This document shows, piece by piece, positions 16,964-25,945 of a stretch of 36,185 nucleotides of DNA; the stretch's first letter is position 1, and each line of letters begins with the position of its first letter. Under the pieces are notes generated by a model. It was not told the origin of the DNA. It saw nothing but the letters and a program-made list of their open reading frames with translations, and made no database searches. Location: the UHGV virus genome UHGV-0335474; one strand, 5' to 3'. Source of the stretch: a virus. The position numbers were made by a program, and so were the translations under genes.

Positions 16964-18975
16964 TGAAAGTAACTGCAAATGGTAAGACATTTACCTTTCC
17001 TGATGGTACGAGCACGGAAGATATTGGGTCCGCCATTGATGAGTATTTTGCTGGTCAGTCAGCGCCAACACAACAAGGTGTTCAGCAATCGCCAGCAGAC
17101 AACTCACTTGCATCAGGATATGCACAGCTTGCCACTCAGCAGAAGGAAGGACTAGATCGCTCTGCTGAGCAAGGGGCTGTTTTAGGTGCTGCAATGCGCG
17201 ATGCCGTTACCGGTGAAAGCCGAATGACACCAGAAATGGAGAGACTGCAAAATGTTGGGGCTGCCCCTGAGTTGAACTCACTAAGCATGGATGCCCTGAA
17301 GGCTGGATGGTCTCAACTTTTCGGCTCCGACGCGTCTCAGGAAAAGATTCTTCAGAGTATGGGGGCGAAATTAAGGCAGGATGAGAAGGGGAACACTATC
17401 GTTTCCCTGCCATCCGGTGATTATGCCCTGAACAAGCCAGGTTTATCACCGCAAGACCTGACTTCGTTTCTTGCTAATGCGTTAGCGTTCACACCAGCGG
17501 GCAGGGCTGGAACGGTGCTTGGTGCCATAGGGAAATCAGCTGCTACAGATTTAGCACTACAGGGTGGCACCAGCCTTGCTGGCGGAGAAGATATTGATCC
17601 TGCACAAACGGTAATTTCTGCTGGCATTGGTGGTGTTGGCAAGGGGCTGGAAAATACAGTTAGTGCGGTTTCCAGGGCTGTTCGCGGTGAGATGTCACCG
17701 GAAGCAAAGGCTGCTGTCGATTTTGCGTCGGAAAGAAACCTGCCGTTAATGACCAGTGACACGCTGAAAGATAAAACCTTTATGCAGAGTCAGGCTCAGA
17801 CATTAGGCGAAAGAGTTCCTTTTTTTGGAACCGGTAAGAATCGGCTGAATCAACAACAAGCACGAGAAAATTTAGTCAGAACATTTAGCGATGGTCTGGG
17901 TGGCATTTCTGATAAACAGCTTTATGAATCTGCGACTAAAGGGCAACAAAAATTCATTGAGGCAGCAGGAAAGCGATATAACCGCATAATTGACGCTATG
18001 GGGGATACCCCTGTCGATCTCTCAAACACGGTAAAAGCTATCGACAATCAGATTGCCGTGTTAAGCCGCCCGGGCAAATCTCAGGATAGAGCCGCGGTAA
18101 AAGTCTTGCAGCAATTTAAAGACGATATCACCAGCGGACCCAATGACCTGCGTCTGGCGAGAGAAAACAGAACTGACCTTCGAAAGCGGTTCATGAATTC
18201 AAACGAGACTGTTGATAAAGACACGCTCCAGAAAGCCAGCGATATTGTCTACAAGGCATATACAGCGGATATGAAAAAAGCAGTATCCCAAAAACTAGGC
18301 TCAGAAGAAGCTGCCAATATGTCTAGGGTTGATCGCTCATGGGCTAGATTCAATGACATGATGGGAAGAACGCGCGTTCAAAAGGCAATAGCCAGCGGCA
18401 AGGCTACACCTGAGGATGTAACAAAACTCGTTTTTAGCCAAAACCCATCAGAACGTTCTCAGCTTTACAGGCTTCTGGATGACAATGGTAGGCAAAACGC
18501 ACGAGCAGCCATAGTTCAGAATGCTGTAGATAAGGCGACTGATCCGTCTGGAAATATTAGTGTTGAAAAGTTTATTAATGCGTTACACCGGAACAGGAAG
18601 CAATCAGCAACTTTCTTTAAAGGCGTACATGGAAAGGAACTGGACGGCGTTATTAAATACCTCAACGATACAAGACACGCGGCAAAAGCGAACGTTCAAA
18701 ACTTAAATGGTCAGCAGCTTTATGGATTGTTAGTTGGTGGTGGCATCATAAACGCAGCAGTATTAGCGGGGATGCTAAAAACGGCTGCGTTTGTTGTTCC
18801 TGCTGCTGGTGTCGTAGGAGGAGCAGCGAAGGCATACGAAAGCCCTGTTATACGAAATGCCTTGTTACGTCTGGCAAATACGCCAAAAGGTAGCACAGCA
18901 TATGACAGAGCGATCAGTACGGTCACACAATCGCTCACCAGAGTCGCACAGGCATCACAAAAAGAAGCTCAATAA
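16960..18975 (+). CDS. Ejection protein, P22 gp16-like
   Basis: 671 aa, position; hydrophobic segment near the C-terminus. Confidence 0.6.
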
Positions 18976-18992
18976 CTGGCAGCCACGGATGG

Positions 18993-19397
18993 CTAATTTT
19001 TATTCTTTGATCTCGTCCACAGGTAAAGAAGAGCAATGGCAAGACAGGAAACAGAGAATAGATAACCTACCTCATATGGTGCGCCAAAAAAATTAGCTAT
19101 TGATACGGGCAAAAAAGCCGAAGCGATCAGAATTGAAAGGCAAAAAATAAGCCCAGTAACATAGTTTATTAAACTCTTAAATGAGAAACGTTTTGCTTGA
19201 TTTACGGTCTCAGCGAGTGATCGCTTAACGATGGATAAAAGCAAATAGATGGCGACAGTAGCTAATGCCCCTTTCCACCAGTCTGGATATAGTTTTGCGA
19301 CAATCAGCCCAAGGAAAACCATGATGACAGACTGAGCATTCACACCAACCTCCTTAGTTTTGTGCAGGATACCAGATGATGTATGGAGAGGCATCAT
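18993..19397 (-). CDS. Integral membrane protein (sieA-equivalent position; possible superinfection exclusion)
   Basis: Multiple hydrophobic helices. An AAGGAGG SD sits in front of an internal GTG/ATG, so the true start may lie ~15-20 codons inside the track ORF. Confidence 0.4.
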   Translation of the reverse strand: MMPLHTSSGILHKTKEVGVNAQSVIMVFLGLIVAKLYPDWWKGALATVAIYLLLSIVKRSLAETVNQAKRFSFKSLINYVTGLIFCLSILIASAFLPVSIANFFGAPYEVGYLFSVSCLAIALLYLWTRSKNKN

Positions 19398-19479
19398 CTA
19401 CTGGTGATAGAACGATGATTGCAGATTGATATTACGATCTGTACACTTCCAGTAGAACCGTGTGTTCTCTGGAGGCGAT

Positions 19480-20133
19480 ATGGACAACATCTACATAGCT
19501 AGTTTTGGTGATATAGACATTCGTTTTGTTAATGTCGACGATGATGTGTTTGTGTCTCAAGGGGATTTTGTCCGTGCAATGGAGTCGTGTCTCACTGATG
19601 ATATGAAACACATAGCTGGTATTTTCATCAGTGGTGGTGTGAGAATTGTTGGCGATTCTAGTGATAGCCGCTCTGCAATACTTGGCGACAGTCTAATTGG
19701 GCCAGCTATTCATTTTCATGCGGTAGGCAATATTCTTACCTCATTGGTTGAAATGAGTAATGAGGAAAACCCCTCTTTAAGAGAGAGTTGTTATCGCATG
19801 AATAGCTTATTGCAGTGGTACACGATAGCTTTATCCAAGGCCGATGAGTATTTTGGTCGTGATGTTGTTGACTTGCTATCTTCAGTAAAAAGGCGTCTTG
19901 ATCGACTTAACGCTCCATATACCGTAAACGTCCTTCATGATGGGGGTGTTTGGGTTGCAACATGCGATGAGCTTGGATTAGTTACAGAAGCTCCAGATTA
20001 TGAATCTCTTACTGAAAGAGTGTGGGATGTCGCTGGAGATATGCTGGTTGAGAATGGTATAGATCAAGACGTAGAAAGCCTGCGCTTTTCCTTCGTTCAG
20101 GAGCAGGTGTCTGATGACAGGATGGCGCTATAA
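19480..20133 (+). CDS. HicB-like antitoxin-domain protein with N-terminal Bro-N/AntA-like extension
   Basis: C-terminal YTVNVLHDGGVWVATCDELGLVTEAPDYESLTERVWDVAG fits the HicB N-domain pattern; N-terminal FGDIDIRFVNVDDDVFVSQGDFVRAME resembles Bro-N. GGAGG SD before the ATG at 19480; track ORF begins at 19462. Confidence 0.5.
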   Translation: MDNIYIASFGDIDIRFVNVDDDVFVSQGDFVRAMESCLTDDMKHIAGIFISGGVRIVGDSSDSRSAILGDSLIGPAIHFHAVGNILTSLVEMSNEENPSLRESCYRMNSLLQWYTIALSKADEYFGRDVVDLLSSVKRRLDRLNAPYTVNVLHDGGVWVATCDELGLVTEAPDYESLTERVWDVAGDMLVENGIDQDVESLRFSFVQEQVSDDRMAL

Positions 20134-20136
20134 GAA

Positions 20137-20334
20137 ATGGGGCAGGGGCTTTATCCAGAACTGAAAGAGTTATTGTTGTCCTACAACTGTTATTTTGTGC
20201 GTCAGGGTAAAGGTAGCCATGAGATATGGCGAAGCCCTATCACGAAAAAGGCATTTAGCGTTCCATTTACTATAGTTTCAAGGCATACGGCTAACGCAAT
20301 TCTTCGCCAGGCAGGAATAAACAAGAAAATTTAA
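20137..20334 (+). CDS. hicA: HicA-family toxin (mRNA interferase)
   Basis: 65 aa, VRQGKGSHEIWRSP...SVPFTIVSRHTANAILRQAGI matches the HicA consensus (GSH motif, C-terminal ILKQAGL-like). Confidence 0.7.
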   Translation: MGQGLYPELKELLLSYNCYFVRQGKGSHEIWRSPITKKAFSVPFTIVSRHTANAILRQAGINKKI

Positions 20335-20357
20335 CCCACCGTCAGGTGGGTTTTTTT
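20335..20357 (+). terminator. Rho-independent terminator after hicA
   Basis: CCCACC-GTCA-GGTGGG hairpin followed by T7. Confidence 0.8.
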
Positions 20358-20389
20358 ATCTTCTCTACTTTAAAGATTAAGGAAATACC

Positions 20390-20575
20390 ATGACCATAGA
20401 AGAACGTCTGAACAACATTGAGTTGAATCAAACCCTGCTTGACCAGCGACTTTCAGATCTTGAGCTTAAAGATCTAGATGTGCAAATATCAGAAGCAGAA
20501 GCCAAGCTCTCCAGCTTAAACCACCGCAGGAAGCAAATCCGCGACAGAATTACTCGTGGACGCGGAGGCTGTTAA
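20390..20575 (+). CDS. Small coiled-coil hypothetical protein
   Basis: 61 aa with AAGGA SD; heptad-like sequence. Could be non-coding. Confidence 0.3.
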   Translation: MTIEERLNNIELNQTLLDQRLSDLELKDLDVQISEAEAKLSSLNHRRKQIRDRITRGRGGC

Positions 20576-20652
20576 GGTGTGATGGTAATCCTTGCTCACT
20601 AAATTTAAGGATGCGAATCTTTCCGGCCATAGGAGTAATCATGATTTACCCA

Positions 20653-21189
20653 TCAAACAACCCACCAGTTTGCCTGATTGGATACCAGCCTTGCAGTTTT
20701 TATGGAATTAATTATGCCATGCTCAAGAGCCTTGTTAGCATCCAAAATGGTCGAGTCTGCTATCAGGGATGCCCACCTAATATGGGTTCCGATGTCGATA
20801 TTGAACGTCTCAACGAAGCGATCAAGATCGTTATCGAGGCATTTCCCGTACTCTCTCAATCTGGCATGGTCGGCGGCTGGGGAGGCAAAGCACCATAATA
20901 GAGGATGTAACAGGAATCTTGATAATGGGTTTGCGAAACGTTCTGAGCCAGCCAGGAAAACGATATTAGCTATGGATTCAACATTGCTTATGTTGTGAGT
21001 TCTAACGGTAACAGGGAGTGACTTAAGAAAGTTATACGCAGTAAAGCCAGCGGCAGTTTCCCCTCCCTGACTTGATATATGGATATTTAATTCAGTTGCG
21101 CCTTGAGATAATGCGGTGAGACAGTGGTTCTGAAGTTGCCCAACAGTGGCAGTGTTAACGGGGCATAAGAAATGAATTGTGTGCAGCAT
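20653..21189 (-). CDS. ClpP-like serine peptidase (S14-family fold)
   Basis: 178 aa; aligns by eye to the ClpP core (ISSQGG vs INSPGG, Ser in NVESIAN vs GQAASMG, His in RFLLHPL vs RVMIHQP). Start overlaps the mnt stop (TAATG). Confidence 0.65.
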   Translation of the reverse strand: MLHTIHFLCPVNTATVGQLQNHCLTALSQGATELNIHISSQGGETAAGFTAYNFLKSLPVTVRTHNISNVESIANIVFLAGSERFANPLSRFLLHPLLWCFASPAADHARLREYGKCLDNDLDRFVETFNIDIGTHIRWASLIADSTILDANKALEHGIINSIKTARLVSNQANWWVV

Positions 21190-21443
21190 TATTTATCATC
21201 CTTGCCATAAATCTTTTTAAGTGTCTCAAACACAACGGCCTTGAACTGCTCTGCTTGCTGATCAGCCAAGCGTTCAGCTTCGTCGCGATATCCTGTAATC
21301 GGTGATGGTTTTGATAGTGCATCCTGAACGATTTGTAATAACTCAGAGTTCATTGACCTTCCGTTAGCCTCGGCTCTTAATTTCAATTTTTCTCTTACTT
21401 CCAAAGGCATACGGAAGTTAAAGTGCGGATCGTCTCTAGCCAT
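21189..21443 (-). CDS. mnt: Mnt repressor (ribbon-helix-helix)
   Basis: 84 aa, MARDDPHFNFRMPLEVREKLKLRAEANGRSMNSELLQIVQDALSKPSPITGYR..., near-identical to P22 Mnt as recalled. Confidence 0.85.
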   Translation of the reverse strand: MARDDPHFNFRMPLEVREKLKLRAEANGRSMNSELLQIVQDALSKPSPITGYRDEAERLADQQAEQFKAVVFETLKKIYGKDDK

Positions 21444-21466
21444 GCCATCACTCCAAGTTAGTATCT

Positions 21467-21730
21467 CTAACTTTCGTCTTTATTGTTGCTATACATGCAT
21501 TTCAACTTCTCAACATCATGTTCAAGATCTATCAATCGTGATGCTATAGTTGCAAGGTCTAGTGCTTGAATGTGTTTATTTTTTTCGGTCCATGCTTCAA
21601 GTGCCGCGACCATCTCAGCATTTAATGAACGAGAATTAGCCTCAGCCAGTTCAATAAGACGTTCCTTTATCTCTACAGGAAGCCTCAGATTCACTTGAGG
21701 GTTTTTGTACTTACGATCAGACATCGGCAC
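21467..21730 (-). CDS. Arc/Mnt-family ribbon-helix-helix DNA-binding protein
   Basis: 87 aa, VNLRLPVEIKERLIELAEANSRSLNAEMVAALEAW: RHH motif. First gene of the leftward mnt operon. Confidence 0.6.
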   Translation of the reverse strand: MPMSDRKYKNPQVNLRLPVEIKERLIELAEANSRSLNAEMVAALEAWTEKNKHIQALDLATIASRLIDLEHDVEKLKCMYSNNKDES

Positions 21731-21761
21731 ATCCTGAATAATTTTTTACCACAGGATATGT

Positions 21762-21790
21762 AGGTATCTATTGACTATCAATGCGTACCT
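21762..21790. promoter_or_regulatory. Nested palindromic operator-like element in the divergent immI-like promoter region
   Basis: AGGTA-TCT-ATTGA-CTA-TCAAT-GCG-TACCT, plus a direct repeat ATGCGTACC x2 at 21781-21809, between the leftward RHH/mnt operon and the rightward arc-like/ant operon. Confidence 0.45.
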
Positions 21791-21829
21791 AAATACTATG
21801 TATGCGTACCACATATAACGGAGGATGCA

Positions 21830-21970
21830 ATGAAGGTAAAAACACTGCGTATGCCAGAGAAGTTAGAAAAAATCCTTGAAGAGAAAGCAAAGGAAGAGTG
21901 TCGCTCATTTAGTGCAGAAGTAATTAAACGGGTGATGGACAGCCTGAAGAGAGAGGGGATAACGGTATGA
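21830..21970 (+). CDS. arc: Arc-like repressor (ribbon-helix-helix), 46 aa
   Basis: Read manually (below track cutoff): MKVKTLRMPEKLEKILEEKAKEECRSFSAEVIKRVMDSLKREGITV, resembling P22 Arc as recalled. GGAGG SD 5 nt upstream. Confidence 0.6.
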   Translation: MKVKTLRMPEKLEKILEEKAKEECRSFSAEVIKRVMDSLKREGITV

Positions 21971-22170
21971 GTAAAGAATGTTGTTTCTGCGGCATTAGCG
22001 AATCAGACGCTGATCAAACATACATTTACTCTAAAGAAACAGGTCGGATGCTGTGTAGTGACTGCGTGTTGGACATCATAAGATACAAGCATCTTGGATG
22101 TTCTGCCAGCATTAGCAATATAGGTGAAGTATATGAAGGGAAAGATATAACTGATAGAGCAGAAAGTTGA
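21967..22170 (+). CDS. Small Cys-rich (zinc-ribbon-like) hypothetical protein
   Basis: 67 aa with CCFC...CSDC; ATGA overlap with the arc-like stop. Confidence 0.4.
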   Translation: MSKECCFCGISESDADQTYIYSKETGRMLCSDCVLDIIRYKHLGCSASISNIGEVYEGKDITDRAES

Positions 22171-22233
22171 AGCCCCAACTGCGGTAACAGTCAGGGCTTC
22201 GGTATCGTAAAACCACGCATAGGAATTAACGAC

Positions 22234-23157
22234 ATGACGAGTGTAGCAATTGCAGAACATACAATCAACGTTCCATTCCACGGCGCAGAGCTTTATGTTG
22301 TCAATCACAACGGCGAACCGTATACCCCAATGAAACCTATCGTTGAGGGAATGGGGCTAGACTGGAAATCTCAACATAAGAAGATTTCTCAACGCTTCTC
22401 GAAGGGTATGGTGGAAATCACCATACCTTCTGCCGGTGGGGTGCAAGCCATGATTTGTATGGCTTTACGAAAATTGGCAGCTTGGTTGAACAGCATCAGT
22501 CCTAACAAAGTCCGCCCTGAAATCCGCGACAAGGTAATCCAGTATCAGGAAGAGTGTGACGATGTGCTCTACGAGTACTGGACTAAAGGCTATGTAGTTA
22601 ACCCACGCAAATCTAAAAAGGCGTTGCCGGGTAAAATCACCACTGAACAGCAGGAAGCCATTAAACAACTCGTCATGAGTCGCGGTCAGTCTCTGCCAAA
22701 AGAAAAACAGGCTAAGGCGATGATCACCATGTGGTCGTCACTGAAATCCCATTTTGGATGTTCGTACAAAGAAATCAGTGAGGAGCAGTTTACCGAAGCA
22801 CTGTCACTTGCTGCTCGCGTTCCGCTTGAAGGTGAGTTCATTGGCAAACAAGAGAAGAAAACCAACGAGCTTTCTGCAAAAGAAGCAAACAGCCTTGTAT
22901 GGTTATGGGATTATGCCAACCGTTCACAGGCATTATTCCGCGAACTGTATCCGGCGCTAAAACAAATTCAATCGAACTATTCCGGCAGATGCTACGACTA
23001 CGGTCATGAGTTCTCGTATGTTATCGGAATGGCGAGAGACGTTTTAATCAATCACACACGAGATGTTGATATTAATGAGCCAGACGGACCAACGAATCTT
23101 TCCGCATGGATGAGACTTAAGAATAAAGAATTACCTCCTTCAGTACATAACTACTGA
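22234..23157 (+). CDS. ant: Antirepressor (Ant; AntA-like N-terminal domain)
   Basis: 307 aa downstream of arc in an immI-like layout; N-terminal FHG.ELYVV..NGEP pattern. Confidence 0.65.
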   Translation: MTSVAIAEHTINVPFHGAELYVVNHNGEPYTPMKPIVEGMGLDWKSQHKKISQRFSKGMVEITIPSAGGVQAMICMALRKLAAWLNSISPNKVRPEIRDKVIQYQEECDDVLYEYWTKGYVVNPRKSKKALPGKITTEQQEAIKQLVMSRGQSLPKEKQAKAMITMWSSLKSHFGCSYKEISEEQFTEALSLAARVPLEGEFIGKQEKKTNELSAKEANSLVWLWDYANRSQALFRELYPALKQIQSNYSGRCYDYGHEFSYVIGMARDVLINHTRDVDINEPDGPTNLSAWMRLKNKELPPSVHNY

Positions 23158-23176
23158 CAGATAACCAACGCAACGA

Positions 23177-23199
23177 CCCAGCTTCGGCTGGGTTTTTTT
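23177..23199 (+). terminator. Rho-independent terminator after ant
   Basis: CCCAGC-TTCG-GCTGGG hairpin followed by T7. Confidence 0.8.
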
Positions 23200-23257
23200 A
23201 TGCCCAAAATTCACCGTAGCCATGCTGCGGCGATTCCTTGTGTCTGGAGCAAATTAA

Positions 23258-25945
23258 ATGAGAGACATTACAGCCAATGTGATCGTATCGATGCCTTCGC
23301 AACTCTTCACTATGGCGCGTTCTTTTAAAGCCGTAGCTAATGGCAAAATTTATATCGGTAAAATTGACACTGATCCTGTAAATCCAGAAAACCAGATTCA
23401 GGTCTATGTGGAGAATGAAGACGGTTCTCACGTTCCTGTTTCGCAACCAATAATCATTAACGCTGCTGGATATCCTGTATATAACGGACAGATTGCCAAA
23501 TTCGTTACCGTGCAAGGCCATTCTATGGCTGTTTATGATGCGTATGGTGCGCAGCAGTTCTATTTTCCTAATGTGCTGAAGTATGACCCTGATCAGTCAT
23601 TGAAATATGTAGAAGGGGCATTGCTTGTTACTGACTTAGGTAATGGGACGTTTAAGAATAGTAGAAAAGACGTTGCCATTGGGGATAATCTAACAGGAAC
23701 CAATTTTATTAGAATAAACGGCGGCGTCTATAAATGCACTCCAGTTGCAACTGGAATTGTTACTGAGATCAAACATAGATACATTATCGCAGGCGGGGTT
23801 AAAAGCTACCTGTCTCATATTTCCAGGCATGTCAGTGGTACGCGTAGGCCGCTGAACTGGAAATTAGAATTCAGCATCATAGACGATGAGATTACCGCAG
23901 ATCTTAAAGATCAGTATGGTTACACGACCATGGGATTTCAGGGGATTTACATAGACAGCAATGATGGAATGGTATACATCGGCTGGCAGACGCTAGACCC
24001 CGCATCGGTATGGGTTACGGTGCATGACTGGGTAACAGGAGCATTGGTAACACGTCTTCATTTTCCGAATAACGTTGGTGCACCAGAAGGCATCCACGTT
24101 TACCGAGTGGCAGGACAGCGTTACATCCTGCTGCCGTACAGCCCATCTCGCACTATCAGAATTTACCCTATCGAAGATCCGCGTACGCTGGTTGATAAAA
24201 CGCAGATTACAAACTTCACTGAATCAACACGCCTTGGAGTGCGATATCAGTTTAGTGGCTTTGGTAATACCCTGATATACGAAAATGCGGATATGGGTTG
24301 GCCGAAAATTTTTGATGTTGAGACAGGTGTATCCAATATCTTTAACACACTGGATATTAACAGCCTTATAGAAGGATCTTACAGTCCAATGGGGACTATT
24401 ACGGTTGATGCAAATGTTGGAGGTCGCGGAGCCGGTAAACCAAAACGGCAGGGTGTCGCTCTTGGTTCTCAACGGATATTTGCTGGTATTGGTGCATCTA
24501 CCACGGCGGGATCTGGAAATACTTTCGCAGGGTTGCAGGGTTATATTGAGTACAGCCTTAATGGTTCAGAATTAGGTCAGTACCTGCTGTCACCTGCAGA
24601 TTTCAAAACATACTGGGATAGTTATTCAGGGAAGAGTGTTTACTCCACTGAAAATGAGGGGGTGCAGTCTTGTGATATTTCTGGCTCTGAGGAATTGTAT
24701 CTTCTACAGTCTATTCGCTATGACAATGGGGGCGGATCAAATTATAGGACTTTAAACATCATTCGCGCTAACTGTCCATCTAATGAACCTGGAACAGTAG
24801 ACATGACTCCGCTATCCAATGCCTCATCACAGTTATTTAACCCTCGCGGAAGGGTGATTAACGCTGGCCGTCACCCTGTAAACCCGGCTGATGGTATTGC
24901 GCTATTTACATCGGCACAGGCTATTTGTGACTATTTGCGGAATACAGATGCAGGTAGATATGTGACATATCTTGAACAGGATATGCCACTGTTTGAAGGT
25001 GGGCCATCTGCGCCAGGACAGATGACGCTGCCAGCATTCTGCCTATTGCAGATCGACTTCATCAACGGCGATACCTGGGAAATTACAGTTAATGGAACTA
25101 ACAGGGCTAATAATTATACAGGAAGGATTTCCAAAAACGGCGGGTACAACTCTTTTACTAAGGTGTCCTCCCGCAGCATGTCGATTCTCGGATCCCCTGG
25201 TCTGGTTGATGTATCAATTCGCTCACCTAACTCACTAAATCTTCCAGAATTTGCTGGAGACTGGTCTACTGGTGTAAGTATAGGAGCTGCAGGTGGGGTG
25301 ACAAACTGGCAGCCAGAAGGAACAGGTAACGGAGCATTATGGGAGTCAGGATATGCAAAAAACCGTGTGTTGCAGATATTCATGTCCACAACATCAAAAC
25401 TGTTCTTCCGCTACGCAGACGATGCTATTCGCGCAGGTAACACAGGCTGGGCTGAGGCATGGTCGTCGCTGAACACGACCGTCGATTCAAGTGGTTTCAT
25501 CAAAAAAGCCTCTCCGGTTGTGAAGATTTTCTCAGACGGTAGTAGTGAAACAAATCGCGAATCAGATGGGGTAACCGTCACACGGCTGGCATTGGGTGAA
25601 TATCTGATTGAGGGTTGCGTAGGTCTGAATGCAGATGCTTCATGGGGGGGGATTGATGGTGGATTTGAAATACCGCAGGACCGAAACAAGCAGCCGCTCA
25701 TCTGGCTGGATTATGTTGTTAACCAAGATGGATCTGTGTTGGTGAAAACGTTTCACCGCACTCATGATAACTCGCCCGTTTTTGCACGTAACGACATCCC
25801 TGGTGTTTCGAACGGTGACCCGATCGACATTCCTGCTAATCAATTCGTTTCTGTGCGAGTACAGATGCCTGAGGATTCTGCATGGAATAAGCTTAAGGAA
25901 CAACTAAATAAGGCTGAATTGATAGAAGATGATGTTGTGGAATAG
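23258..25945 (+). CDS. Tailspike protein (P22 gp9-like head-binding domain plus divergent receptor-binding domain)
   Basis: 895 aa. The first ~110 aa match the P22 tailspike N-terminus as recalled (ITANV.VS.P...F....[33 protein letters not shown]...NVLKYDPDQ); the remainder is unrelated to P22/Sf6 spikes. Confidence 0.85.

Follow-up and report, generated by a model that had tools for sequence, protein, structure and literature searches.

The stretch of DNA considered here, UHGV virus genome UHGV-0335474 (36,185 nucleotides (nt) in total, hereafter referred to as the window), is a P22-like prophage in which two adjacent genes, lying between the last ejection gene (gp16-like) and immI, encode an antitoxin of the HicB family and a toxin of the HicA family. 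In all likelihood, the two genes make up a type II hicBA toxin-antitoxin cassette that belongs to Class 7 in the classification of Gerdes (2024) and forms a self-contained moron of a P22-like prophage, whose host is most probably Escherichia albertii. The first gene, hicB (19480..20133, plus strand, stop codon included), encodes a ‘long' HicB antitoxin of 217 amino acids (aa) that matches Pfam DUF1902 and phrog_3448; the second, hicA (20137..20334, plus strand, stop codon included), encodes a 65-aa HicA toxin. The hicB stop codon TAA (20131-20133) is followed by GAA and then by the hicA ATG, so that the intergenic gap is 3 nt. The open reading frame (ORF) listed for hicB spans 19462-20133 and opens with GTG, but the ATG at 19480 is the likely start, because the Shine-Dalgarno sequence GGAGG (19471..19475, plus strand) lies 4 nt upstream of this codon and all homologues (216-218 aa) begin at the equivalent methionine; the GGAGG is invariant in all six aligned cassettes.

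Judged by its sequence, the second gene encodes a HicA-family toxin. Over aa 8-61, the protein scores 41.2 bits with the Pfam family HicA_toxin (PF07927; cut-off 27, E 1.9e-10); it also matches phrog_353 ‘toxin' (E 2.7e-16), has an isoelectric point (pI) of 10.1 and carries the residues Gly26-Ser27-His28 (codons at 20212-20220), with the motif GSHEIW invariant in 22 related HicAs that come from loci with long and with short forms of HicB. Gly26 and His28 are needed for the activity of Yersinia pestis HicA3 and are masked by HicB in solved complexes, and the equivalent residues in Burkholderia pseudomallei HicA are Gly22 and His24 (PMC11594946). A sequence search of the PDB with HicA yielded no match at E <= 1.

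The C-terminal part of HicB (aa 146-217; 19915..20130, plus strand) is a DUF1902, or HicB-fold, domain with a net charge of -13 and is predicted to neutralize the toxin. The match to Pfam DUF1902 (PF08972) spans aa 147-208 with a score of 40.4 bits (cut-off 22), and 24 of the 25 members of the family match DUF1902 as well. Sequence and profile searches of the PDB with the antitoxin retrieved only relatives of this domain, 1wv8 (TTHA1013) and 2yzt, and in the predicted model the domain has the partial RNase H-like fold of HicB and matches solved HicB structures. The HicA-HicB dimer model of Gerdes places HicA on the beta-sheet of the C-terminal domain (PMC10865869). Helix-turn-helix (HTH) and ribbon-helix-helix (RHH) domains were searched for with Pfam in the HicB of the window and in the 25 family members, and none was found.

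The two genes are framed by predicted transcription signals. Upstream lies a candidate sigma-70 promoter (19419..19447, plus strand), with the -35 hexamer TTGCAG at 19419-19424, a spacer of 17 nt and the -10 hexamer TACACT at 19442-19447; equivalent hexamers with the same spacing are kept in the cassettes of phage SEN22 and of the Serratia and Yersinia types, which reside in differing phage backbones. Downstream, an intrinsic terminator (20333..20358, plus strand) overlaps the hicA stop codon and consists of a stem (20333-20352) of 8 base pairs (bp), 5 of them GC, followed by a run of T; its folding energy is -14 kcal/mol (z = -5.2), and none of 200 shuffled sequences folded equally well. An 8-bp inverted repeat flanking the promoter (19397-19404 and 19449-19456) was considered as a possible operator and rejected as a chance occurrence because neither SEN22 nor the other cassettes retain it. 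The only match in an Rfam scan of 18500-23500 was the sar RNA in immI, with no RNA family detected inside the cassette.

The part of HicB that precedes the DUF1902 domain (hereafter, the N-module) consists, in AlphaFold2 models, of two segments. In the model of the full-length protein (predicted local distance difference test (pLDDT) 81), an alpha+beta domain at aa 1-95 is followed by two long helices within aa 98-143 and by the C-terminal domain. The first 95 residues (19480..19764, plus strand) are predicted to form a Bro-N/KilA-N/APSES-like domain with three strands, two helices, a beta-hairpin and a further helix, and residues 96-145 (19765..19914, plus strand) hold the two helices (98-124 and 129-143) that join the domains, with pLDDT values by block of 84-96 except at the C-terminal end near residue 145, where the block value is 75. 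A model of the N-module alone, built from 24 sequences, reached a pLDDT of 90.2 and a predicted template modelling score (pTM) of 0.85. When this module was compared with the viral models of BFVD using Foldseek, the matches were to Bro, an Ant-like antirepressor, many ‘Bro-N domain-containing' proteins, KilA and 38.7K (E 5e-5 to 1e-2, probability ~1), and in the PDB its fold matched APSES DNA-binding domains. Fold searches with the N-terminal half returned no HicB.

At the level of sequence, the N-module stands much more isolated. Searches of Pfam for Bro-N (PF02498), KilA-N, AntA and P22_AR_N found none of these domains in any of the 25 family members at E <= 1 (as a positive control, the Ant protein of the window matched P22_AR_N at 9e-45), and the scans of Pfam, NCBIfam and PADLOC gave no assignment of the module to Bro-N, KilA-N, AntA or a defence family. 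An hhalign comparison with a narrow Bro-N profile (28 enterobacterial sequences) was not significant (P = 0.026, probability 1.9%, 39 columns), although the alignment falls in the expected register, pairing strands 1-3 and helix 1 with the motif vRFV...d.FVS..D. An exhaustive HMMER search with aa 1-144 against 1.84 billion representative sequences retrieved 20 proteins, nearly all of 216-234 aa and of the same architecture. One apparent exception, P0026 (778 aa), proved to be spurious, an NHL-type repeat protein whose match is due to ten short repeats. The conserved motif HFHA (aa 78-81), considered as a possible catalytic site, was dismissed because more distant members of the family lack it. 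The module has an acidic composition in each of the 25 members (pI 4.1-6.6, net charge -1 to -10, with -10 in the window), compared with a pI of 6.9-9.8 in a sample of five Bro-N domains from Ant-type proteins, and this acidity fits protein binding better than DNA binding.

Most of what the sequence-only reading had proposed for the two genes agrees with these results: the same-strand arrangement with the 3-nt gap and the terminator was confirmed, with the start of hicB moved to the ATG at 19480, the assignment of the second gene to HicA is upheld by the score above the PF07927 cut-off, and the HicB fold suggested for the C-terminal segment of the first protein is supported by both the DUF1902 match and the structural match. 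Its further suggestion, a Bro-N/AntA-like domain at the N-terminus, survives only in part: the predicted fold does match Bro-N, KilA and APSES domains, but neither Pfam nor hhalign supports the relationship, so that the resemblance appears to be right at the level of the fold and is unproven as homology. In the published description of Class 7, Foldseek was reported to find DUF1902 in both halves of HicB and no recognizable DNA-binding domain (PMC10865869). The present models suggest, to the contrary, that the N-terminal half is not a second DUF1902 and falls into a class of folds known to bind DNA. The nature of this half, a published open question, would thus receive a testable answer, namely, a predicted Bro-N/KilA-N/APSES-like fold followed by a helical hairpin.

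A clue to what the N-module contributes comes from a pair of Photorhabdus loci. The long-form locus of P. namnaonensis (L006, 3989-4642) and the short-form locus of P. viridis (L017, 1482-1742) are 96% identical in the upstream region and 87% identical across the C-terminal domain and hicA. The P. viridis HicB begins with MSNTVYKAHFGDRQTSFV, ~17 residues that resemble strands 1 and 2 of the long form, and passes from there directly into the C-terminal domain, so that it looks like the product of an in-frame deletion of approximately aa 18-148 between the RFV and PFV motifs. Because this short form retains the upstream region and an intact hicA, the N-module would not be needed to hold the toxin and is probably accessory to its neutralization. 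The HicAs of L006 and L011 differ at a single residue, and the toxins of long- and short-form loci appear to be nearly interchangeable. These long and short loci with near-identical toxins offer a natural comparison of what the N-module adds. Despite its apparent dispensability, the module is under purifying selection, with the ratio of nonsynonymous to synonymous substitution rates (dN/dS) at 0.03-0.11 for the N-module, the C-terminal domain and hicA wherever dS was computable (not saturated), and the gene pair is co-conserved across Gamma- and Betaproteobacteria.

The cassette is a self-contained moron of ~0.94 kb that consists of a predicted promoter, the two genes and the terminator. Its status as a prophage moron, surmised at the outset, is borne out by a prophage of E. 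coli SW070919 that is otherwise 99-100% identical to the window and carries different cargo at the same site. The exchanged segment, as delimited by blastn breakpoints, spans 19375..20325 (no strand assigned): identity between the two prophages is 100% as far as 19374 and 98.9% from 20326 onward, and in place of the cassette that of SW070919 has 641 bp with two unrelated small ORFs. The left breakpoint abuts 34 nt (19341-19374) that match the 5' region of P22 sieA with 100% identity and recur in dozens of P22-like phages, and the right breakpoint (20326-20358) coincides with the intrinsic terminator, which is common to the window and the alternative cargo cassette of SW070919. These two short segments have the appearance of conserved borders at which morons are swapped. 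The left junction falls inside the ORF located 5' of the cassette (18993-19397, minus strand), which encodes a sieA-like membrane protein of 134 aa that has only the 34 nt in common with P22 sieA, and because of this position, the first codons of this ORF change with the cargo. The GC content of the cassette is 42-44%, compared with ~52% in the upstream part of the gp16-like ejection gene.

Homology to cassettes elsewhere extends over approximately 19416-20355, that is, from promoter to terminator, with the similarity to the Serratia siphovirus-type locus starting at 19416. The cassette occupies the same site as in the window in Salmonella phage SEN22 and in a Salmonella-type P22-like prophage, and is also found in a Serratia/Klebsiella siphovirus-type tail cluster and in Yersinia-type lambda-like tail regions, in one of which it adjoins an Arc/Arc/Bro-N-Ant module. 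Apparently, the ~0.94-kb unit moves between unrelated temperate phages, and it represents a clean case of a promoter-to-terminator moron that P22-like phages swap at their sieA/immI hotspot and that is present among siphovirus tail genes as well. Of 50,697 phage records, only that of SEN22 contains the cassette, which was not found in 5,426 complete E. coli genomes; the Salmonella version is present on >800 contigs. The hicA gene follows hicB in 12 of the 13 long-form loci, a count that includes one locus with a frameshifted hicA (L008) and in which the exception is an orphan hicB of Xenorhabdus (L007), and also in most of the short-form loci. Frameshifted or degraded copies of hicA were detected in L008, L020, L021 and L024. 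In the locus of the most divergent enterobacterial-type homologue (P0018, 243 aa; L003, 5001-5886), hicB overlaps hicA by 44 nt; in the public annotation this hicA is missing and a minus-strand ORF is called in its place, and the cassette adjoins a BrnT/BrnA toxin-antitoxin pair in a prophage.

The rest of the window is that of a P22-like prophage, with a P22-type portal and coat, gp7, the gp20 injectosome translocase and a 671-aa protein in the gp16 position and, further along, Mnt, Arc-like genes, the sar RNA, Ant (with the P22_AR_N and P22_AR_C domains), a tailspike and an integrase. On its 3' side, the cassette is followed by a 61-aa coiled-coil ORF and then by a ClpP-like ORF on the minus strand. 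The former (20390-20575, plus strand), located directly after the hicBA terminator, belongs to phrog_7586 (E 1e-43), shows a weak XhlA-like similarity, has a good ribosome-binding site and is conserved at 91-95% DNA identity in Emek, Kapi1, S.Kent 1-2-1 and many E. coli prophages. The latter (20653-21189, minus strand) encodes a 178-aa ClpP-like serine protease (Pfam CLP_protease, 2e-11; NCBIfam ‘head maturation protease, ClpP-related', 5e-13), lies directly downstream of mnt in the immI region, with a stop/start overlap at 21189, and is kept in two other prophages, that of E. coli SW070919 (L002) and the Salmonella-type P22-like one (L035). To our knowledge, no prohead protease takes part in the assembly of P22-type phages, so that a Clp-like protease co-transcribed with Mnt would be an odd passenger. 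The sar antisense RNA (22165-22232, minus strand; Rfam RF00262, 85.7 bits, E 1e-17) is located just upstream of ant, as in P22, and compared with P22, immI has a surplus of two genes, one for a second Arc-like ribbon-helix-helix protein (87 aa; 21467-21730, minus strand) upstream of mnt and the other a 67-aa Cys-rich (CxxC...CxxC) ORF between arc and ant (21967-22170, plus strand).

Taken together, the gene order, the signals and the analogy to solved HicAB complexes suggest how the cassette might function. The predicted promoter would drive constitutive synthesis of a single bicistronic mRNA, from which hicA, lacking a good ribosome-binding site of its own, would be translated through coupling to hicB, so that the antitoxin would be at least as abundant as the toxin. 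The acidic C-terminal domain of HicB would bind the basic HicA and mask the Gly26/His28 RNase site, and when HicB is lost or displaced, HicA would be expected to cleave mRNA and arrest growth. Loss of HicB could result from loss of the prophage, from host shut-off or proteolysis during superinfection, or from a trigger bound by the N-module, and the benefit to the prophage could be addiction or exclusion of the abortive-infection type, the latter being compatible with the location of the cassette next to a sieA-like gene and immI. Several points weigh against this scheme: the promoter hexamers match the consensus at 8 of the 12 positions, which is under the scan threshold, so that the promoter was not called; no conserved operator-like repeat is present in the aligned promoters of six cassettes; neither protein has a match in PADLOC-DB v2 at E <= 1; and according to a review of HicAB, a defence role has so far only been proposed (PMC11594946).

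Within this general scheme, the function of the N-module and the main benefit conferred by the cassette are subject to several interpretations. One possibility, which we regard as less likely than not, is that the module is a sensor or adaptor for a protein from a superinfecting phage or, in an antirepressor-like manner upon induction, from the resident phage, and that binding of this protein releases or destabilizes the HicA-HicB complex, making the cassette a triggered abortive-infection device. The acidic surface and the fold shared with the N-terminal domains of phage antirepressors are compatible with such a role, as is the combination of purifying selection on the module with its apparent dispensability for holding the toxin. 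The cassette is always found in prophages and often next to exclusion or immunity genes, namely, a sieA-like gene and immI in the window, in SEN22 and in L035, and the Arc/Arc/Bro-N Ant module in L034, and Gerdes has argued for a defence role of HicA contexts generally (PMC10865869). On the other side of the balance, the cassettes in L031-L033 are located among tail genes with no immunity module nearby, covariation provides no evidence for any partner, and the missing PADLOC match counts here as well. The more specific version, in which an acidic Bro-N/KilA-N-like module acts as an antirepressor-like protein sensor of an incoming or inducing phage component and so frees HicA, is improbable, and the link to antirepressor-like sensing raised in the sequence-only reading is speculative. 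If this version were correct, Class 7 hicBA would be a directly triggered prophage-borne abortive-infection switch, in which a viral Bro-N-type domain has been recruited as the trigger-reading head of an antitoxin.

A second interpretation, to be entertained with a similar degree of doubt, is that the cassette is mainly an addiction or stabilization module, or selfish cargo, with no exclusion phenotype, and that the N-module serves only for oligomerization or for the stability of HicB. There are precedents, given that one prophage HicAB stabilizes plasmids and that a HicAB-like pair of mycobacteriophage Adephagia protected against none of the phages tested (PMC11594946). The horizontal spread of the cassette among unrelated phages is what would be expected of a selfish element, and decay is seen in the orphan hicB and in the four loci with frameshifted or degraded hicA described above. 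The Salmonella version, however, persists with all its parts intact on >800 contigs, and the strong purifying selection on the N-module suggests that the module is more than a spacer.

A third interpretation, likewise rather unlikely in our estimation, equates the N-module with the DNA-binding domain that Class 7 HicB otherwise lacks: in place of the RHH or HTH domain of canonical HicB, it would bind the hicBA promoter and mediate autoregulation. This view has several merits, in that the structural neighbours of known function all bind DNA (the APSES domain of Mbp1, Bqt4, Dachshund, Ski-like proteins and DdrC), Bro-N and KilA-N have been described as viral DNA-binding domains (PMC8096241), and canonical type II antitoxins, including HicB of Classes 3-6, carry a DNA-binding domain, the lack of which in Class 7 was flagged by Gerdes as an open question (PMC10865869). 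The acidity of the module in every family member sets it apart from the sampled Bro-N domains of Ant-type proteins, and there is no conserved repeat or operator in the aligned promoters to which it could bind; furthermore, the short Photorhabdus derivative keeps the upstream region and an intact hicA without having the domain. On balance, a role in protein binding or sensing, or in oligomerization, is somewhat more likely for the N-module than classic operator binding. Finally, the notion that the two ORFs are chance or mis-called, or that the upstream protein is unrelated to HicB, draws only on the ambiguous GTG/ATG start and is refuted beyond reasonable doubt by the scores of both genes above the Pfam thresholds, the structural match to HicB, the co-conservation of the pair and dN/dS values well below 1.

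With the assignment to a Class 7 hicBA cassette retained, the pair can be placed among the known systems. Gerdes sorted HicA contexts into 14 classes (mBio 15:e03293-23, PMC10865869), of which Classes 1 and 2 are the most prevalent; the antitoxin-first order, hicBA, is found in Classes 2 and 5-8, and Class 7 is the class of ‘long HicB' (216-233 aa) (PMC10865869). The early suggestion that a toxin located downstream is unusual for this family is not sustained, because antitoxin-first arrangements are common, and the fusion architecture of the long HicB, which had also been considered unusual, has previously been described as Class 7, the prototype of which is a Salmonella relative. Compared with the canonical HicAB of E. 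coli K-12, HicAB3 of Y. pestis and HicAB of B. pseudomallei (Classes 3/4), in which hicA precedes hicB and the antitoxin has an RHH or HTH domain at its C-terminus, the pair in the window has the antitoxin first, no RHH or HTH domain that could be found and, instead, the Bro-N/KilA-N-like module at the N-terminus. The predicted fold of aa 1-95 is similar to that of Bro-N, KilA-N and APSES domains, such as those of baculovirus Bro, of Ant-type phage antirepressors (at the N-terminus) and of yeast Mbp1, but the module differs from all of these in showing no significant sequence similarity to them, in being acidic rather than neutral to basic, in its fusion to an antitoxin domain and in being nearly confined to proteins of the 216-234-aa architecture.

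Among the systems that share the DUF1902 domain, the structural representative, TTHA1013 of Thermus thermophilus (PDB 1wv8), is a single domain of 73 aa. The short DUF1902-type HicBs of Class 2, exemplified by Salmonella EAN4946474.1 and by the Xenorhabdus and Photorhabdus loci L009-L017, are much closer: these are stand-alone DUF1902 proteins of ~80 aa, without aa 1-145 of the long form, that are 44-54% identical to the C-terminal domain of the window HicB, with hicA 1-6 nt downstream, and their HicAs belong to the same clade, being 62-82% identical to that of the window and nearly identical to the HicA of the Photorhabdus long form. In addition, several clusters of 217-aa HicBs at 90% identity (P0040, P0048, P0056 and P0057) also contain, according to public annotations, ‘DUF1902 domain-containing' proteins of 111 aa, which may represent gene calls from internal starts or N-terminally disrupted copies. 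The closest counterpart is the Class 7 prototype itself, HicB WP_000065196.1 (217 aa) and HicA WP_001674386.1 (65 aa) of Salmonella enterica, with a gap of 3 nt (PMC10865869). The HicB of the window aligns end to end with other members of its family, some of them near-identical to those in Table S1, sheet 7, of Gerdes; identity to the prototype is ~71% for HicB, as measured via P0010, a protein near-identical to WP_000065196.1, and ~92% for HicA. There is no architectural difference between the two pairs, which have in common the gene order, the lengths of 217 and 65 aa, the 3-nt gap, the two-domain HicB with the linking helix and the DUF1902 annotation. The exact proteins of the window are already named by NCBI in Escherichia albertii, as a ‘DUF1902 domain-containing protein' (WP_273779579.1) and as a ‘type II toxin-antitoxin system HicA family toxin', so that the pair, on account of both the published class and these named proteins, is a known system.

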